Assembly: GCA_001462245.1 (NCBI GenBank)
Contig: LIUG01000158.1
Span: 401 to 59,921 of the forward strand
Direction of reading: 5' to 3'
Length of the DNA: 59,521 bases
Source: Candidatus Fibrimonas termitidis
GTDB taxonomy: Bacteria; Fibrobacterota; Fibrobacteria; Fibrobacterales; Fibrobacteraceae
Within the stretch, counting starts at the first letter, position 1. Every line of letters starts with the position of its first letter. The notes below the pieces were generated by a model. The model was not told the DNA's origin, searched no databases, and was given only the letters and a program-made list of their open reading frames with translations. The translations under genes were made by a program, and so were the position numbers. Below are positions 7,018 to 45,505 of the stretch, piece after piece.

Positions 7018-7020
7018 CAA

Positions 7021-7050
7021 TGCCTTCAAAAAAAATGCCTTCAAAAAAAA
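7021..7050. repeat. perfect 15-bp tandem duplication TGCCTTCAAAAAAAA x2 abutting a -35 box
   Basis: 7021-7035 and 7036-7050 are identical; they end 2 nt before TTGACA. Confidence 0.95.
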
Positions 7051-7052
7051 TC

Positions 7053-7081
7053 TTGACAACGGCTCGAAAAAAATCTATATT
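7053..7081 (+). promoter_or_regulatory. consensus sigma-70 promoter TTGACA-N17-TATATT
   Basis: TTGACA 7053-7058, 17-nt spacer, TATATT 7076-7081. About 60-nt leader with SD AGAGG before ATG 7144. Confidence 0.7.
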
Positions 7082-7143
7082 AAACATACCCATTTTTTTC
7101 CCATCCATAAGTCCAGAATTTCCCCTAAACAAAGAGGTTCGTT

Positions 7144-8577
7144 ATGAGCTATAACAAATATGCTCTCGCTCTCGTTTTTGCCTGCTTTTTGAGCGCATTT
7201 GCGCAGGAGCAACCAGAAAAAATAGCCGTCTATGTGTTCGGCGCCAGCGAAGCCAACATAAACAAGTCCTTTGGCAACAAGCTGCTTGCGTCAATTACGC
7301 AAAGCGACAAGTATGCGGAGATAAAGGATTCGGAAACCTTTTACAAGGAGCTTGCGAAAAACAATGAGGAGGGTGTAAGCCAAATATCCCAGACGGGCAA
7401 GCGGCATGGCGCGGACTATGTTTGCGTAGTGAGCCTTACCGAGGTGTTTGGCTCCTATTCCATCTTTGCCCGCATAATAAAGACCTCCGATGCCGAGGCA
7501 ATCAGAACCGCCTCTTTGGACCGTTCTCTTAAATCCCTAGATGACCTCGCCCGTGCTTCCAATGAGCTTGTCAGCCAGCTTTTTCAATTGCAGCCCCAAA
7601 CGCCTGCGCCTCCTCCCGCAACTCCCGTGCCAGCCGTTGTTCCCCCAATGGCATTGGCAGCCCAAAAGGAGTGCTCAAACAAGCTGAACATCAACGAGAT
7701 TCTTTCCAAGATACAGAGCAGCATTCTCCCGCAGTTGAAGGATTGTTCGGGCACCTTGGCCAAGGATATGGCTTTGGCTATGTCTCCTTTTGGCAAGAAG
7801 GGTGCGGCACCGCAGCCTGTGCCGTTTATGAAGGAGTGCACGATTGACGGCATCAAGAAGAAATTGCCTGATGGCGCAGATGAGTATATTAAGCCCATTG
7901 AGAAATTTTTGCAGAATGTTATGAATGCGGCATCTGCTGGCGGCAGTTTGGATGTCAAAAAGCTTCCGGGCATTATCAGCGGGCTTAATGTGAATGATCT
8001 TATAAATGAGTTGAAGGCTAAGGCGGCTAATGATGAGTGTGTGGTTGATGAGCCTTATACGCAGCCGGTTGCCGATGAGGAAGAGGAAGGCGGTTCTGGT
8101 GATGAGGGAGGCAGGAAAATAGTGTCTCTGGGTTTTAGGGGTGGGTTGAATTTTTCGCATATGAACGTAGATAATAATCATTCTTATAATCCCACCTTGG
8201 GTTTTCAAGGGGGTTTGGTTCTTGACATAGCTTCTAACATAGCTTCTATTAGCTGGTTTCATATCCAGTTCGGTGTTATGTATATCCAAAAAGGAGCGAA
8301 AGATGACGCTGGCACAGTTGCGACTTTGCATAATATTGAAATTCCTTTGCTGCTATCGCCTAAATTTTCTGCGCTCAGGCTTAATGCTGGTCCGTATTTT
8401 GGCATATGCCTTGGCGGGGATATTGAATGCGACGATCTTGATATTGGTATCAGCACGGGCTTTGGCTTTGATATAGGCATGTTTTACATAGGTATGTTTT
8501 ATGACTATGGCTTGGTTAGACATTGGGATTATTTTTCCAACCGCACATTTGGCTTTAATTTAGGGGTAAATCTATGA
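7144..8577 (+). CDS. secreted two-domain protein: LpoB/CsgG/FlgO-like N-domain, Pro-rich linker, C-terminal OMP beta-barrel-like domain
   Basis: Signal peptide LVFACFLSAFAQE. N-domain ADYVCVVSLTEVFGSYSIFARIIKTSDAEAI, PQTPAPPPATPVPAVVPP linker, and Gly/aromatic-rich C-terminus ending FGFNLGVNL. Confidence 0.45.
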   Translation: MSYNKYALALVFACFLSAFAQEQPEKIAVYVFGASEANINKSFGNKLLASITQSDKYAEIKDSETFYKELAKNNEEGVSQISQTGKRHGADYVCVVSLTEVFGSYSIFARIIKTSDAEAIRTASLDRSLKSLDDLARASNELVSQLFQLQPQTPAPPPATPVPAVVPPMALAAQKECSNKLNINEILSKIQSSILPQLKDCSGTLAKDMALAMSPFGKKGAAPQPVPFMKECTIDGIKKKLPDGADEYIKPIEKFLQNVMNAASAGGSLDVKKLPGIISGLNVNDLINELKAKAANDECVVDEPYTQPVADEEEEGGSGDEGGRKIVSLGFRGGLNFSHMNVDNNHSYNPTLGFQGGLVLDIASNIASISWFHIQFGVMYIQKGAKDDAGTVATLHNIEIPLLLSPKFSALRLNAGPYFGICLGGDIECDDLDIGISTGFGFDIGMFYIGMFYDYGLVRHWDYFSNRTFGFNLGVNL

Positions 8578-10884: not shown

Positions 10885-10912
10885 CTGTCGTTTTAGGGCT
10901 GTCGTTTTAGGG
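10885..10912. repeat. perfect 14-bp tandem duplication CTGTCGTTTTAGGG x2 abutting a -35 box
   Basis: 10885-10898 and 10899-10912 are identical; they end 1 nt before TTGACA. Confidence 0.95.
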
Positions 10913-10913
10913 G

Positions 10914-10942
10914 TTGACAAGCCACTTCTTTTTTGCTATATT
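10914..10942 (+). promoter_or_regulatory. consensus sigma-70 promoter TTGACA-N17-TATATT of the sulfur operon
   Basis: TTGACA 10914-10919, 17-nt spacer, TATATT 10937-10942. Confidence 0.7.
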
Positions 10943-10953
10943 TAAGCCTGATT

Positions 10954-14820: not shown

Positions 14821-15178
14821 AACGGGTGGCGGGTTGTCGCTGTGCTTTTGCGCAGAGGAAAGTCCGGGCATCATAGAGCAAAGTGCCGGCTAACGGCCGG
14901 AACCGGTAACGGTATGGATAGCGCAACAGAAAACAAACCGCCGGCTTGAAAGAGCCGGTAAGGGTGAAAAGGCGAGGTAAAAGCTCACCGCGCTTTTGGC
15001 AACAAAGGCGGCAGTGCAAGCCCCACTTGATGCAAGACCAAACAGAAATGAAAGCGTTGCTCGCGCTTGCTTTTGCTGCATTTCGGGTAGGTTGCTGGAA
15101 GCCATTGGCAACAGTGGCTCAAGAGAAATGACAACCGCGCTTAAATGCGAACAGAACCCGGCTTACAGCCACCCGTTT
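14821..15178 (+). ncRNA. rnpB: RNase P RNA, bacterial type A
   Basis: GAGGAAAGTCCGGGC at 14855-14869, GGTAAGGGTGAAA, and ACAGAACCCGGCTTAC at 15151-15166. P1 helix AACGGGTGGC (14821-14830) is perfectly complementary to GCCACCCGTT (15169-15178). Confidence 0.93.
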
Positions 15179-15939
15179 CAAAATCCAAGCGCTGCTCCCA
15201 AAATTATATTGTGAATATTGATGTTTTTTTTGCTAACCGATGTTGAATATTCAAGAGATAACCAAAAATTTCTCGTATTCTCCTTTAATTTTTCAAACTG
15301 TTCCCTTAGATTAAAAGCTATTGAGGCGCTAAAAGAAGCTATAAAGGCTCCATTAAATGCCAAATCCAAATTATGTCCGAAATTTAAACCCCAATTTGGC
15401 GTTGCCAAAAAACCGACGCCGCTTTGGTAGCCAATGCTTGAACCTATTTCCCCATACAATTCATCGCAATGAGTTTTTACGTTTTCATTATGATTTCCCA
15501 TATTTGAAAATTCTCTTCTCAGATCGCTCAGTGTGGTATTTTCAAAAGAGAATACGGGGCCTATGAATAAGACGTATCTTGGCTGGCTGTGCGCAATTTT
15601 TGCATCTATTGAATATCTTTGGTTTATTATGTTACGCATGGAATCCGGTTCCCCGCCTAAAAATTTGATGCTCGCTCCGCCGGATAAATGGGAATTGTAG
15701 GAATAATTTCCGTGGCCTGTCCATGTCCATAAAGTTTTGCAATTTGTGCTGTTAATGGTACCCAGCCCCATTCCGGCGGTTAATCCTTTGTCTTGCGCTA
15801 TACCGTGCCCCGGCAGAGGAATGCCGATGGCATGGGAATTCACCGATAATATTAACAGCAGTAAAAGAAATTGAGAATAATCAGTAGCCCGCTTGAGCGA
15901 ATAATTTAGCCACTGACATGTTGTACTCATAGACCGCAA
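15178..15939 (-). CDS. hypothetical outer-membrane beta-barrel-like protein
   Basis: Hydrophobic signal FLLLLLILSVNSHA, Gly/aromatic-rich sequence, C-terminus ...LGAALGF. 5' end overlaps the TolC-like gene; stop abuts the rnpB 3' end. Confidence 0.4.
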   Translation of the reverse strand: MRSMSTTCQWLNYSLKRATDYSQFLLLLLILSVNSHAIGIPLPGHGIAQDKGLTAGMGLGTINSTNCKTLWTWTGHGNYSYNSHLSGGASIKFLGGEPDSMRNIINQRYSIDAKIAHSQPRYVLFIGPVFSFENTTLSDLRREFSNMGNHNENVKTHCDELYGEIGSSIGYQSGVGFLATPNWGLNFGHNLDLAFNGAFIASFSASIAFNLREQFEKLKENTRNFWLSLEYSTSVSKKNINIHNIILGAALGF

Positions 15940-31057: not shown

Positions 31058-31950
<893 letters not shown>

Positions 31951-33531: not shown

Positions 33532-34392
33532 CTAGAAAATTACGTTCTGTCCGTTCACTTTGCATTTACCTTGCATTTCCAGTTCCGTTAGTATGGCTAA
33601 AACTTCATTTACAGGTTTTTTGCTTTGCTCGCAAATATCGGTTATTTGCATAATGGTTGCTTTTGCGGCCCAACTTGGGAGGGAGGGTTCGTCTTTGAGA
33701 GTATGGGGTATAGGGTATGGGGTATGGGGGAATAAGGAATTTAAACCCAGTATTTCCGGTAGTTCGTTTGTGCTCCAGACTATTTGCGCTTGTTTTTCGT
33801 AGATTAGCCGGTTGCAGCCTTCCGAGGTTGGAGTCATGGGGGAACCCGGAACGGCAAATAAGGGTTTGCTTTCTCTAAAGCAAAAATTAGCCGTGTGCAT
33901 TGCTCCGCCTTTTATTCTGCTTTCAACAACCAGGGTGGCATCTGACATTCCGGATATTATTGTGTTTCTTTTAACAAAGTACCCCTGATAGGCTCTTGAA
34001 CCCGGGGCAAAGGGCGAAATTATATTGCCTCCGTGTTCTAAAATTTTTTCAGCCAAAATTTTTTGGCTGCTCTGCAAAGGCATATCCAATCCCTGAGCTA
34101 TAACGGCTGTGGTTGGCAAATTATTTTCAATGGCAGCCTCGTGGCAGAGCGAGTCTATGCCCTGGGCCAGTCCGCTAATTATGCGAACTTTATAGGCCTT
34201 TAAAGCTTTAACCATGGATTTTACCGTATTTGCCGCAATGCCGCTCGGGCTTCTGGTACCTACCATCGCAAGGCAAAATTCATCGCCAAAATTCACCGCA
34301 CCGGCAACCCAAAGTTTAGAAACAGCATACCTGGACTTCGCCAACAAAAGCGGATACCCATCCCCATTAATATCCAAAACATCAACTCTCAA
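33532..34392 (-). CDS. dprA: DNA processing protein DprA (Smf)
   Basis: MVGTRSPSGIAANTVKSM...IISGLAQGIDSLCHEAA Rossmann core plus a C-terminal winged-helix region. Predicted TTG start lies inside the heptamer array, so it is uncertain. Confidence 0.85.
   Translation of the reverse strand: MRVDVLDINGDGYPLLLAKSRYAVSKLWVAGAVNFGDEFCLAMVGTRSPSGIAANTVKSMVKALKAYKVRIISGLAQGIDSLCHEAAIENNLPTTAVIAQGLDMPLQSSQKILAEKILEHGGNIISPFAPGSRAYQGYFVKRNTIISGMSDATLVVESRIKGGAMHTANFCFRESKPLFAVPGSPMTPTSEGCNRLIYEKQAQIVWSTNELPEILGLNSLFPHTPYPIPHTLKDEPSLPSWAAKATIMQITDICEQSKKPVNEVLAILTELEMQGKCKVNGQNVIF
33701..33730. repeat. G-rich heptamer array GTATGGG/GTATAGG x4 translated in-frame inside dprA
   Basis: Units 33701-07, 33708-14, 33715-21 and 33722-28, then GG. 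Encodes FPHTPYPIPHT in the linker before the C-terminal domain. Four G-runs lie on the plus (template) strand. Confidence 0.95.
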
Positions 34393-34417
34393 CTCTCAAC
34401 TCTCCACTTTCAACTCA
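34383..34417. repeat. heptamer array (CAACTCT on plus = GAGTTGA in gene direction) at the folB/dprA junction
   Basis: 3 perfect units 34383-34403 plus degenerate CCACTTT and CAACTCA. Supplies the folB stop (34396-98) and the dprA TTG (34390-92). Confidence 0.95.
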
Positions 34418-39367: not shown

Positions 39368-39368
39368 T

Positions 39369-39396
39369 CAACCCTCAACTCTCAATTCTCAACTTT
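39369..39396. repeat. degenerate heptamer array (CAACCCT CAACTCT CAATTCT CAACTTT) at the DUF1343/ftsX junction
   Basis: In the gene direction it reads GAGTTGA-type units and encodes the last residues (LRIES) and the TGA stop (39375-77) of the upstream gene. The ftsX ATG follows 7 nt later. Confidence 0.85.
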
Positions 39397-40892: not shown

Positions 40893-40934
40893 GGGTATAG
40901 GGTATAGGGTTCAGGGTATAGGGTATAGGGTATC
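40893..40934. repeat. G-rich heptamer array GGGTATA x6 (one unit GGGTTCA, last GGGTATC)
   Basis: Units every 7 nt from 40893. Lies where a -35/UP region of the hemerythrin promoter would be. Six GGG runs with 4-nt loops on the plus strand. Confidence 0.95.
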
Positions 40935-40963
40935 TTACCTTTACCCTCAATTCAACACCTAGA

Positions 40964-40994
40964 CCTTGGACAAGACACGCATTGCCTGTCCAGG
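40964..40994 (-). terminator. candidate stem-loop after the three-gene secreted operon
   Basis: CCTTGGACA (40964-72) / TGTCCAGG (40987-94) form an 8-bp stem with one bulge, just downstream of stop 41000. No clear U-run. Confidence 0.3.
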
Positions 40995-40999
40995 CCTGC

Positions 41000-41473
41000 T
41001 TATTCCCTGATTACTGGAAAAACTAGGTTGTCTCCATGGGTATATGTGTAAACAACGTATTTAATACTCTTGCCTGTGGATTCATAGGGTAAATTCAAAG
41101 TTAAATCCCAAGATGAATTGCAACTGCACGCTGTCACAAGGGAACCCTCATCAGGCCAATACTCTTCAAGTTTCAAAGTATCAATAGCTTGGCTGGCTTT
41201 AATTCTAACGTTGCTTGAGCAATACAACCCAATCGAATTCAAATGAACATGTGTTTTGCCATTAGAATTGGTTATTACTGCAAATTTTTCAACTTCACTG
41301 AACGGTTCAAATGGTTCATCGTTGATTTGTTTATGCAGTCTATCCAAGCATTGCGAAGAGCCTACATAACCATCTTCGTCGGAAGTATCTTCATCTGAAG
41401 AATTACAAGCGTTCAAAAAAAACGCTAGCAGAAGGGAAGCTATAGAAATTTTAAGCATAGTTTTACACCTCAC
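41000..41473 (-). CDS. small Cys-containing lipoprotein, unknown function
   Basis: Lipobox LAFFLNACNSS followed by the acidic linker DEDTSDED. GTGA overlap with the upstream gene (alternative ATG at 41458). Confidence 0.5.
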   Translation of the reverse strand: MRCKTMLKISIASLLLAFFLNACNSSDEDTSDEDGYVGSSQCLDRLHKQINDEPFEPFSEVEKFAVITNSNGKTHVHLNSIGLYCSSNVRIKASQAIDTLKLEEYWPDEGSLVTACSCNSSWDLTLNLPYESTGKSIKYVVYTYTHGDNLVFPVIRE

Positions 41474-42486
41474 TTACGGTTAATAAATGATTGAGCGATT
41501 CCCATAAATTCTTCTTCTTTTTTATAGTTAATTGAATAAGGCGCATCTACAACAGTATGTCTAATTTCTCCATTGGATGCTTCAACACTCACAGAATACG
41601 ACAAGCATGGAGATAAAGCATTTTCAGTTGCTGTTTTGCACCATGCCTTGGCTACACCGTTTACATCAAAACTTCTAATTGATAAAGTGTCTCCTGCTGC
41701 AATCACATAAGAATAACCCGAATTTATAACCGATTCTAAAGCTTCAGTAATATCGGTTACATTATTACTTATATTTGTGAATTTTTCAGTTGAAAATAAA
41801 TCCTGCCAAGCCATGTCCATATTTTTAATACGTCCATCTTTATCTATAACTACGGTTAAGTAATTACTGGTACCTCTAACTATTCTGCCTTTATATATGC
41901 GTTGGAAGAATAATGTATAGCCATTTTCAGTTCCGGTATGCGCATTTGGAACGGTTTTAGTTTGCGAAATTGTTTTGCCGTTAATATATTCACTGTAACT
42001 ATTTTCGATGGTTTGCGGAACCGCTATGCTTTCAATATACTCTGTGCCTATTATGAATAAATCAAATTGCTTGGCAATTGTATCAGAGAATAAATGTTTA
42101 AGCAATTTTTTGGACTCTTGATTTTGATTTTTCTTTAAATTATCAATATTTAATTTAAAGGTGCTTTTGCACGAATCAAAATAGGCAATATTTTCATAGT
42201 GGATGACAGACAAGAAACTTTTCTCAGCACTCTTAGAAATATCTTTTATTTCTTGAAAAGATTCTTTTCCTAACAAAGAGGGATTTTCGGAGGATACTAT
42301 CTGTATGCGTTCTCTTTCTTGGAACTTTTCAAAATTAGAACCATAATCCATCGCAAAAAACAACCCGGAACGATGCCTGTCGCTATTTTCTCGCAAATAC
42401 GATTGTACATGGGATTGCATTTTGACTATTGGTTGAGCACTAGCAAAAAATGCGAATGCCAAGATAAATATTGAAGTGTATTTCAT
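41470..42486 (-). CDS. secreted protein, unknown function; possible PepSY/FTP-like propeptide-type modules
   Basis: Signal peptide FILAFAFFASAQP. Segment NGYTLFFQRIYKGRIVRGTSNYLTVVIDKDGRIKNM resembles PepSY/FTP-type beta-hairpin modules (weak, by eye). Confidence 0.4.
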   Translation of the reverse strand: MKYTSIFILAFAFFASAQPIVKMQSHVQSYLRENSDRHRSGLFFAMDYGSNFEKFQERERIQIVSSENPSLLGKESFQEIKDISKSAEKSFLSVIHYENIAYFDSCKSTFKLNIDNLKKNQNQESKKLLKHLFSDTIAKQFDLFIIGTEYIESIAVPQTIENSYSEYINGKTISQTKTVPNAHTGTENGYTLFFQRIYKGRIVRGTSNYLTVVIDKDGRIKNMDMAWQDLFSTEKFTNISNNVTDITEALESVINSGYSYVIAAGDTLSIRSFDVNGVAKAWCKTATENALSPCLSYSVSVEASNGEIRHTVVDAPYSINYKKEEEFMGIAQSFINRK

Positions 42487-42500
42487 TGTGCTTCTCCTAA

Positions 42501-43352
42501 TTAATATTGGGGTTTGCCATATTTGTAGCTAAGCCAATTTATTGTAAGGTTGGTTGCTCCATACTGATAACTAAAAGGACCATTATAAACATTTTGCAGA
42601 CGTTCATTAGAAAAGTTTACATATTGCCCATTATCTGCATTACCAGCCCAAAAAGCAATAGCGGGCTCTATTCCAAGTCCAGCATTTATATAGATGGCAG
42701 CAGCATCTTTAACAGCAGAGTTATGCGAAGACCAAATTGTATTTCCGACAATCACATAACGTGTAGTAAATTTCTTAAACTGGTCTTCGGTTCCGCTTCC
42801 TTGAGAAGGAGAAAATTGCCAAGACATTGACCTGACTCCCAAAATAGCATGAGCACCTCCCATTAACCAGCTGGCGAGATACAAAGGGGAAGCATTAAGT
42901 GTTAAACAAGCATCAAAAATTATCCATCGCGTATAATTGCCAAAAGTTTTTGTAGGAGTAGGTGCAGTAGCTTGAAGCGGGAAATCATAAAATGCCAAAG
43001 TGTTATAATTACCATGTCCGGAAAAAAATACAAATTCACTTAAATCAGTATTATCGTTTAAAAAATTTGCTCTAGTAGCCGTTGAGTTTTCTCTATTATA
43101 CCTTACGGTTGAGGAAGTATTCGGGTATTTTGCGTTCAATTTTCCTTGTAAATGGCCAATAAATTCATTTTTATGAATAATAGAGCGAGGAAGATTGCTA
43201 GCTGTTGAATTATTATTAATGTTGTATTGTGAATAATCATTCACTGCATAAGCTGCAATATCCACATATGCTGGTACACCCCACGGCGTTAGCGCATAGC
43301 AAGAAAACGCTAGCAAAAGAAAAATTATTGAAAATAAATTTAATCTTTTCAT
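42501..43352 (-). CDS. secreted protein with clan-CD-like (caspase/gingipain-type) His-Gly...Ala-Cys dyad; candidate cysteine peptidase
   Basis: Start ATG 43352 (MKRLNLFSIIFLLLAFSCYA). EFVFFSGHG, then RWIIFDACLT with the Cys 36 residues after the His, each preceded by a hydrophobic strand; followed by GGAHAILG. Confidence 0.45.
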   Translation of the reverse strand: MKRLNLFSIIFLLLAFSCYALTPWGVPAYVDIAAYAVNDYSQYNINNNSTASNLPRSIIHKNEFIGHLQGKLNAKYPNTSSTVRYNRENSTATRANFLNDNTDLSEFVFFSGHGNYNTLAFYDFPLQATAPTPTKTFGNYTRWIIFDACLTLNASPLYLASWLMGGAHAILGVRSMSWQFSPSQGSGTEDQFKKFTTRYVIVGNTIWSSHNSAVKDAAAIYINAGLGIEPAIAFWAGNADNGQYVNFSNERLQNVYNGPFSYQYGATNLTINWLSYKYGKPQY

Positions 43353-43374
43353 GGTATTTCTCCATTTACTCACA

Positions 43375-43403
43375 AATATAGAAATTTTTCTCAATTGTGT
43401 CAA
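43375..43403 (-). promoter_or_regulatory. consensus sigma-70 promoter TTGACA-N17-TATATT (minus strand)
   Basis: Minus strand: TTGACA (43403-43398), 17-nt spacer, TATATT (43380-43375). 22-nt leader with GGAG before ATG 43352. Confidence 0.7.
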
Positions 43404-43437
43404 GGGTTTTTCTCAAAAAAGGGTTTTTCTCAAAAAA
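43404..43437. repeat. perfect 17-bp tandem duplication GGGTTTTTCTCAAAAAA x2 abutting the -35 box
   Basis: 43404-43420 and 43421-43437 are identical, with 0-nt distance to TTGACA. Confidence 0.95.
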
Positions 43438-43452
43438 TATTTTTTGCCAAAT

Positions 43453-43476
43453 GTCCTACAATAAGTCCTACAATAA
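43453..43476. repeat. perfect 12-bp tandem duplication GTCCTACAATAA x2
   Basis: 43453-43464 and 43465-43476 are identical. On the minus strand preceded by another TTGACA (43485-43480), 16 nt from a TATTGT created by the second copy. Confidence 0.9.
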
Positions 43477-43487
43477 CATTGTCAAAA

Positions 43488-45505
<2,018 letters not shown>

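Follow-up and report, generated by a model that had tools for sequence, protein, structure and literature searches.

Clan CD is an established fold class of cysteine peptidases, described as having a central β-sheet with a small β section after β3 and the catalytic dyad on L3 and L4, after β3 and β4 (PMC4357240). PepSY-type folds, with YycI treated as a PepSY protein, are described as partner-binding or inhibitory modules (PMC4282423). DUF6345 (PF19872) is already known as a Pfam family of unknown function. A caspase fold for DUF6345 and a fixed three-gene module built around such a protein appear to be undescribed in the searchable literature. Both were found here in a stretch of 59,521 nucleotides (nt) from Candidatus Fibrimonas termitidis (contig LIUG01000158.1, positions 401–59,921; 59.5 kb in all, hereafter the window, to which all positions refer unless another locus is named). 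The explanation that we consider probable, though well short of certain, is that the first gene (gA) encodes a clan CD cysteine peptidase that belongs to DUF6345 and is exported, the second (gB) a regulator or chaperone acting in trans, and the third (gC) a lipoprotein tether. The genes are arranged as follows:

42501–43352, minus strand: gA, 283 amino acids (aa), Sec-exported, DUF6345 family, predicted caspase-hemoglobinase (clan CD) fold
41470–42486, minus strand: gB, 338 aa, Sec-exported partner, no sequence family
41000–41458, minus strand: gC, lipoprotein of about 152 aa with an acidic linker; alternative GTG start at 41473

An earlier note on this DNA had placed three minus-strand open reading frames (ORFs) here, spaced by 14 nt and by a 4-nt overlap. 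The ORFs and the 14 nt between the gA stop (42501) and the gB start (42486) were found as described, with AGGAGA inside the gap; GGAGAA precedes the gA ATG. The overlap of gB and gC (GTGA) holds only if gC starts at GTG 41473. The ATG at 41458 is the likelier start: GAGG stands before it, and the closest homologue (L002) has the N-terminus that it gives (MLKI...). This start leaves an 11-nt gap after gB. Mature gC is identical with either start. The export signals (Sec or lipoprotein) claimed for all three proteins were read in their N-termini: a type I signal peptide in gA (MKRLNLFSIIFLLLAFSCYA, cleaved before LTP), a signal peptide in gB (MKYTSIFILAFAFFASA, ending in FFASA before QP), and, in gC, MLKISIASLLLAFFLNA before the Cys of the lipobox (FLNA followed by C). 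A lipoprotein nature was also considered for gA and was ruled out, as AFSC is a poor lipobox and its Cys is not conserved.

The AlphaFold2 model of gA, built on 27 homologues, had a predicted local distance difference test score (pLDDT) of 91.9 and a predicted template modelling score of 0.88. On searching the PDB with Foldseek, the best 50 matches listed were all clan CD peptidases, namely caspase-1, -3, -6, -7, -8 and -9, gingipain R, the metacaspase Yca1, MALT1 and separase. Among these 50, the best E was 2e-4, the probability 0.84–1.0 (about 1.0 for most matches), and the target-normalised template modelling (TM) score 0.18–0.53, with the caspases at 0.40–0.53. As the mark of the clan CD fold, an α/β/α sandwich around a central, mostly parallel six-stranded sheet was taken. 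The elements of the model follow one another as strand 29–36, helix 57–75, strand 80–88, helix 94–99, strand 107–111, G-H113-G, a small hairpin at 118–127, strand 143–147, A-C149, helix 156–163, strand 169–173, two helices and strand 230–238, an order that agrees, as modelled, with the published clan CD description (PMC4357240). Foldseek matches and element order together place the predicted structure of gA in the caspase-hemoglobinase fold, its similarity to clan CD structures being distant but specific in the model. The structure check proposed in the earlier note, which asked for a caspase-like fold in gA, was thereby run and gave such a fold.

The motifs on which that note had built its clan CD reading are present at the spacing described: EFVFFSGHG holds His113 (codon 43016–43014), RWIIFDACLT holds Cys149 (codon 42908–42906) 36 residues later, and GGAHAILG, with His168, follows. 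In the model, G112-H113-G114 comes directly after strand 107–111 and A148-C149 directly after strand 143–147. His-Gly and then Ala/Ser-Cys, at the C-terminal ends of consecutive core strands, is the arrangement that characterises clan CD, and in the predicted structure gA has it, with the dyad where the L3/L4 rule puts it (PMC4357240). As both residues follow consecutive core strands, taken as neighbours, at the same edge of the sheet, His113 and Cys149 are predicted to be close in space.

H113, G114, C149 and H168 were invariant in 27 close homologues. H113 and C149 were also nearly invariant in an alignment of 96 sequences with a mean column identity of 13%, and occurred together in 150 of the 158 family members that cover both positions (95%). 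The invariance of H113, C149 and H168 in the close homologues and the joint occurrence of the first two across the family put the motifs beyond chance. Both dyad residues were lost in three of the 158 (Q/P, L/P and Y/P) and one of them in five. Joint loss in rare members is what would be expected, judged from the alignment, if the pair is catalytic and occasional members are pseudo-enzymes. Mature gA has no cysteine other than Cys149; taken with the Cys pairs of gB and gC, this would fit a free nucleophile in an oxidising compartment. Candidate S1 residues may be seen in R56 and H60 after strand 1, D147 two positions before the Cys, and the conserved S-x-S-W-[EQ] after strand 5.

Two observations on the family stand beside these. 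Natural pseudo-enzyme variants exist, P0058, P0082 and P0109 having neither His nor Cys, and in P0070 and P0096 the His is replaced by Tyr. The C-terminus of the family is a conserved YGxPxY-COOH (42501–42530 in the window), with G279 and P281 invariant among close homologues and conserved to at least 90% across the broad family; this tail may serve in sorting, in partner binding or in autoinhibition.

Assignment of gA to DUF6345 is marginal when the protein is taken alone: whole-protein hmmscan gave 27.2 bits against a gathering cut-off of 26.9 (E 3.3e-6), over gA residues 49–217 and profile positions 9–165 of 221. The assignment is backed by the DUF6345 annotation of several gA homologues and by distant relatives, found with the gA profile, that match DUF6345 at E down to 1.5e-57. 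The earlier statement that none of the three proteins has a nameable family therefore no longer applies to gA, if narrowly, and stands for gB and gC, neither of which has a Pfam or NCBIfam family. For gA, no NCBIfam match was found. An exhaustive profile search of 1.84 billion representative proteins returned 172 clusters (defined at 50% identity) at E ≤ 1e-3, and the family is rare by this count. Close homologues of gA are annotated as Fibromonadaceae and Fibrobacter. Some distant members carry Laminin_G_3 or PKD domains, which suggests, from domain content, that these are extracytoplasmic; among the other relatives, PKD domains or a weak, below-cut-off FRG1-like (beta-trefoil-like) region were seen ahead of the gA domain. 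In the literature, no functional study was found on DUF6345 or on a Fibrobacter caspase-like enzyme, the sole mention found being a DUF6345 protein in a table of Tannerella forsythia vesicle proteomics (PMC10682907).

For the partner gB, neither Pfam nor NCBIfam gave a family, and the RAMP and zinc-ribbon matches seen in the gB and gC searches were at chance level. Searching PDB sequences with the gB alignment (A2) gave nothing or chance matches. A second gB profile search added only five further homologues, all Fibrobacter-type, and gB homologues were found solely beside gA homologues. The Cys283/Cys294 pair is invariant among them. The gB model (pLDDT 61) shows two units of one helix and four strands, at about 121–226 and 243–315, and disordered stretches at 35–74 and 149–186 with pLDDT below 50. 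A helix packed on a four-stranded antiparallel sheet was taken as the mark of a PepSY-type fold. With this weak model, Foldseek returned B. subtilis YycI (E 2.8e-4), the uncharacterised Eubacterium protein 5coz (E 6.3e-4) and the propeptide chain of the vibriolysin MCP-02 (E 0.016, probability 0.41). gB is thus possibly a PepSY/YycI-like α+β protein, as far as such a model can indicate. The earlier suggestion of PepSY/FTP-like segments in gB is weakly favoured by the YycI and vibriolysin propeptide matches, and finds no counterpart in Pfam.

A fusion link was also sought, in which gB would correspond to the N-terminal extension of the long DUF6345 proteins and which would have backed a trans-prodomain role. 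It was left unproven: with gB against these extensions, hmmsearch found nothing, and hhalign gave only a 30-residue match (E 0.074).

gC had no Pfam, NCBIfam or PDB sequence match (alignment A3 was used for the PDB search). It is small and has an acidic linker. Across 11 aligned homologues, C80, C111 and the Cys of the lipobox were invariant and C113 nearly so. The lipobox and its invariant Cys mark gC, by sequence, as a predicted bacterial lipoprotein, and the conserved Cys pairs of gB and gC are as expected for exported disulfide-bonded proteins.

The co-occurrence of the three genes, which the earlier note had wished to see examined in other genomes, was assessed by searching gA, gB and gC profiles against six-frame ORFs of all loci retrieved. 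In every Fibrobacterota locus whose downstream sequence was long enough (L001/L007, L002, L003–L005, L006/L009 and L010–L014), genes like gA, gB and gC were adjacent, and the trio was found together in one distant metagenome-assembled genome (MAG) as well. The genes form a fixed three-gene module typical of Fibrobacterota. Co-inheritance holds at gA and gB identities down to about 25%, with gC lower still, and inheritance as a unit at this level and below argues for functional dependence among the three. Called genes around the module were read in three loci and vary from one to the next: LPG synthase and a PDZ protein flank it at the first, cation efflux and an aldo-keto reductase at the second, and RNase T and a topoisomerase at the third. 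In the window, tsaD lies upstream of gA on the same strand, and a hemerythrin-domain gene and namZ lie downstream of the module.

Two loci deserve separate description. In a Fibrobacter MAG (L008, 1712–3928) the order is gA, the gC-like lipoprotein, then an N-terminally shorter gB. The distant module (L016, 4344–7274) comes from an unclassified bacterial MAG, where it stands on a contig of 925 kb. Its gA domain, with the motifs FVFFAGHG and VVYCACQT, forms a fusion with a Laminin_G_3-like domain at the N-terminus; next come a gB homologue (E 4e-21) and a lipoprotein of 165 aa that has an MCC motif.

In the explanation that we prefer, the locus would be a self-contained, separately promoted three-gene envelope module. 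After removal of its signal peptide, gA would be a single-domain enzyme of clan CD fold with a His113/Cys149 dyad, most probably a cysteine endopeptidase of the periplasm or cell surface. The exported gB would most probably act in trans by binding gA, to regulate or inhibit it or to help it fold, and gC, a disulfide-containing lipoprotein, would most probably tether or localise the complex at the membrane. The fold of gA, the conservation of its dyad, the export signals and the co-inheritance of the trio are what the data show, and the overall reading of the earlier note, a clan CD-like enzyme with partners, is supported; what we infer beyond this is the peptidase activity and substrate specificity of gA, physical contact among the three proteins and the functions given to gB and gC.

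Several results weigh against this explanation. No Pfam or NCBIfam match to Peptidase_C14, C13, C25, C11, C80 or CHAT was obtained for gA at E ≤ 1, and a PDB sequence search with gA or with the 27-sequence alignment A1 gave no match at E ≤ 10. The broad family profile gave 14 matches to PDB sequences, all sub-threshold (E 0.46–2); counting in favour of the explanation, 13 of them were GPI-anchor transamidase or caspase-1, with the family GHG aligned on their catalytic His. The TM-scores of the gA model are modest (0.40–0.53) and its E values reach only about 1e-4. Some clan CD members are transamidases or pseudo-enzymes and not hydrolases. On the side of gB, no Pfam match to PepSY/FTP was seen at E ≤ 10 for any of 12 homologues, the model is of low confidence, and no internal repeat or duplication was detected in the sequence. 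As a consistency check only, the gA alignment was compared by hhalign with human legumain and caspase-3: H113 fell on the catalytic His of legumain (E 0.058) and H113/C149 on SHG/QACRG of caspase-3 (E 0.25), neither being significant. If gA is a peptidase, it would by these comparisons represent a separate family within clan CD.

The same data bear on three other explanations, each of which we regard as improbable. gA may be a clan CD transamidase or sortase-like enzyme (of the GPI8/PIG-K type, or like the type IX secretion sortase PorU) and not a degradative protease, cleaving a sorting signal on envelope or secreted proteins and passing them to an acceptor, with gB and gC as subunits of a membrane machine. 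The top sub-threshold PDB match of the broad profile was indeed the GPI-anchor transamidase, aligned on the catalytic His, and a pair of dedicated envelope partners that are always inherited with the enzyme and include a lipoprotein suits a multi-subunit machine better than a free protease; Fibrobacterota, moreover, secrete many surface enzymes. That match is, however, not significant (E 0.46), gA is a small protein of one domain, no candidate was identified for a substrate or a sorting signal, and the neighbours of the module vary by locus and show no link to secretion systems, so that we hold this reading to be unlikely. About equally unlikely is that gB and gC are substrates of gA, or independent envelope proteins that merely share its operon. 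Their assigned roles rest solely on co-occurrence and a low-confidence fold match, and the long disordered stretches of gB (35–74 and 149–186) could be processing sites; against this, the trio is co-inherited down to about 25% identity despite changed gene order and neighbourhoods, and gB homologues occur only beside those of gA.

Least probable of the three is an inert, non-proteolytic gA, that is, a binding, scaffold or metal-binding protein (through His113, Cys149 and His168) that has kept a caspase-like fold. The third histidine, H168, is conserved as strongly as the dyad, and the family includes pseudo-enzyme variants, as do other bacterial caspase homologues (PMC6426788). Yet 95% of members keep both residues, in the contexts of hydrophobic strand-GHG and hydrophobic strand-[AS]C, and the three members devoid of the dyad have lost both together, as if the pair works as a unit. 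H168 stands at the N-terminal end of strand 169–173, which in clan CD topology is the sheet edge opposite the dyad, and a joint metal site would for this reason be unlikely.

On a bolder reading, the module might be an undescribed membrane-tethered proteolytic or transpeptidase machine of Fibrobacterota, in which a clan CD enzyme under PepSY-type control in trans is positioned by a lipoprotein and processes or attaches envelope or secreted proteins, for example those of a surface polysaccharide-degrading apparatus. We consider this reading speculative, with the chances clearly against it, although somewhat less so than for any of the three alternatives.

The control region of the operon lies in the 135-nt gap between tsaD and gA, and a stem-loop stands at the distal end of the operon. 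The following features were located:

43375–43403, minus strand: promoter-like site TTGACA-17-TATATT (11/12), first base 51 nt upstream of the gA ATG
43402–43437, minus strand: 17-bp perfect tandem duplication, two copies of TTTTTTGAGAAAAACCC, the proximal copy overlapping bases 1–2 of the -35 hexamer (43402–43403)
43453–43476, minus strand: 12-bp perfect tandem duplication, two copies of TTATTGTAGGAC
43458–43485, minus strand: second, weaker promoter-like site TTGACA-16-TATTGT (10/12), overlapping the 12-bp repeats
40962–40996, minus strand: imperfect stem-loop of about 15 bp, directly 3' of the gC stop codon

Both perfect duplications, with the two 17-bp copies read at 43402–43435, and the second TTGACA (43485–43480), all listed in the earlier note, are present, and a third copy of TTGAGAAAAA lies inside the promoter spacer (43385–43394). 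The promoter, which that note had called a perfect consensus, scores 11 of 12. The 17-bp and 12-bp units have no other occurrence in the window, and no gA-type repeats were found upstream of homologous operons, which have AT-rich promoter-like sites 30–75 nt before the start; the repeats are on these grounds taken as lineage-specific and not as a conserved operator. The stem-loop reported at the operon end is real (ΔG -20.2 kcal/mol, z -2.1; 9 of 200 shuffles fold as well), but it is not a canonical intrinsic terminator, because it has no U-tract, and it was not called in the terminator scan.

To call this the most elaborate control region in the window was an overstatement. The window contains exactly three σ70-type matches of at least 11/12, all of them TTGACA-17-TATATT, and each is directly preceded by a different perfect two-copy duplication of 14–17 bp: 15 bp AATGCCTTCAAAAAA (7019–7051), 14 bp CTGTCGTTTTAGGG (10885–10912) and the 17-bp unit of gA (43402–43437). 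The combined promoter and repeat sites are:

7019–7085, plus strand: promoter and repeat site, upstream of an outer membrane protein β-barrel gene
10885–10948, plus strand: promoter and repeat site, upstream of a gene for a sulfite-reductase-like protein
43375–43437, minus strand: promoter and repeat site, upstream of gA

As two other sites in the window are built alike, the gA control region is best regarded as one instance of a local promoter style. Judged by sequence, a strong-promoter design seems to recur here, with duplications placed where UP elements would lie. A TTGACA overlapped and followed by a perfect 12-bp duplication (two copies of ACATAGCTTCTA) was also seen at 8222–8248 on the plus strand, inside the ORF 7144–8577.

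Elsewhere in the window, heptanucleotide tandem arrays recur (AGTTGAG/CAACTCT in 4–7 copies, GGGTATA in 4–6 copies), at these positions:

2268–2300, 31545–31594, 34382–34416, 39368–39394, 44106–44148 and 44518–44550: heptanucleotide arrays
33701–33729 and 40893–40933: further heptanucleotide arrays

The arrays at 39368–39394 and 40893–40933 lie in gaps between genes. That at 44106–44148 is inside the tsaD ORF and encodes ...STLNSQLST..., so that gain or loss of one 7-nt unit would frameshift tsaD, a housekeeping gene that serves in t6A modification of tRNA. A further array overlaps the region where tsaD starts. The sole Rfam match at gathering score in the window was bacterial RNase P RNA class A (14821–15181, plus strand, 312 bits), and no tRNA genes were found there.

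Were the preferred explanation confirmed, a fold and a probable chemistry could be given to DUF6345, that of a new family of cysteine peptidases in clan CD, and a fixed three-protein envelope module would be revealed in Fibrobacterota, a phylum important for the breakdown of fibre in the rumen and in the termite and human gut. Should the membrane-tethered machine prove true, it would define a new family in MEROPS, and gB would be the first PepSY-type protein to regulate a cysteine peptidase; we know of no trans-acting PepSY-like partner described for a caspase-fold enzyme. The lectin-fused relatives (LamG, PKD and the weak beta-trefoil-like match) and the pseudo-enzyme variants would offer handles on specificity and regulation.

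Compared with known systems, the locus follows the logic of the staphopain-staphostatin pairs, in which the gene of a cysteine protease, here a putative one, shares its operon with that of a small dedicated partner. Staphopains are, however, clan CA (papain-like) enzymes, and staphostatins are cytoplasmic β-barrel inhibitors without signal peptides, whereas both partners of gA carry export signals, one of them that of a lipoprotein. The inhibitor, chaperone or anchor roles and the staphostatin analogy put forward in the earlier note are conjectural. Within DUF6345, gA and its Fibrobacterota relatives form the edge of the family, many scoring below the Pfam cut-off, and they are short and single-domain, in contrast to the three strong DUF6345 matches that were checked (P0155, P0177 and P0180), which have 527–685 aa and long N-terminal extensions. 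With the families of MEROPS clan CD (legumain/GPI8 C13, gingipain C25, caspase/metacaspase C14 and clostripain C11), gA shares the α/β fold by Foldseek and the order of His before Cys, each after a hydrophobic core strand and within His-Gly and Ala/Ser-Cys. Export, predicted for gA, is a further trait in common with gingipains, clostripain and legumain. gA differs from these families in giving no significant sequence match to them, in having neither a cis prodomain nor a caspase-type inter-subunit linker, in its extra C-terminal β subdomain ending in the conserved YGxPxY-COOH, and in being always paired with two separate partner genes. The PepSY/FTP propeptides of M4 peptidases and YycH/YycI are extracytoplasmic α+β modules that bind and regulate a partner (PMC4282423). 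YycI and, more weakly, the vibriolysin propeptide are among the best Foldseek matches of the low-confidence gB model; gB has no PepSY or FTP match in Pfam. In those systems the target is a metalloprotease in cis or a histidine kinase, whereas the target of gB would be a separately encoded clan CD enzyme.

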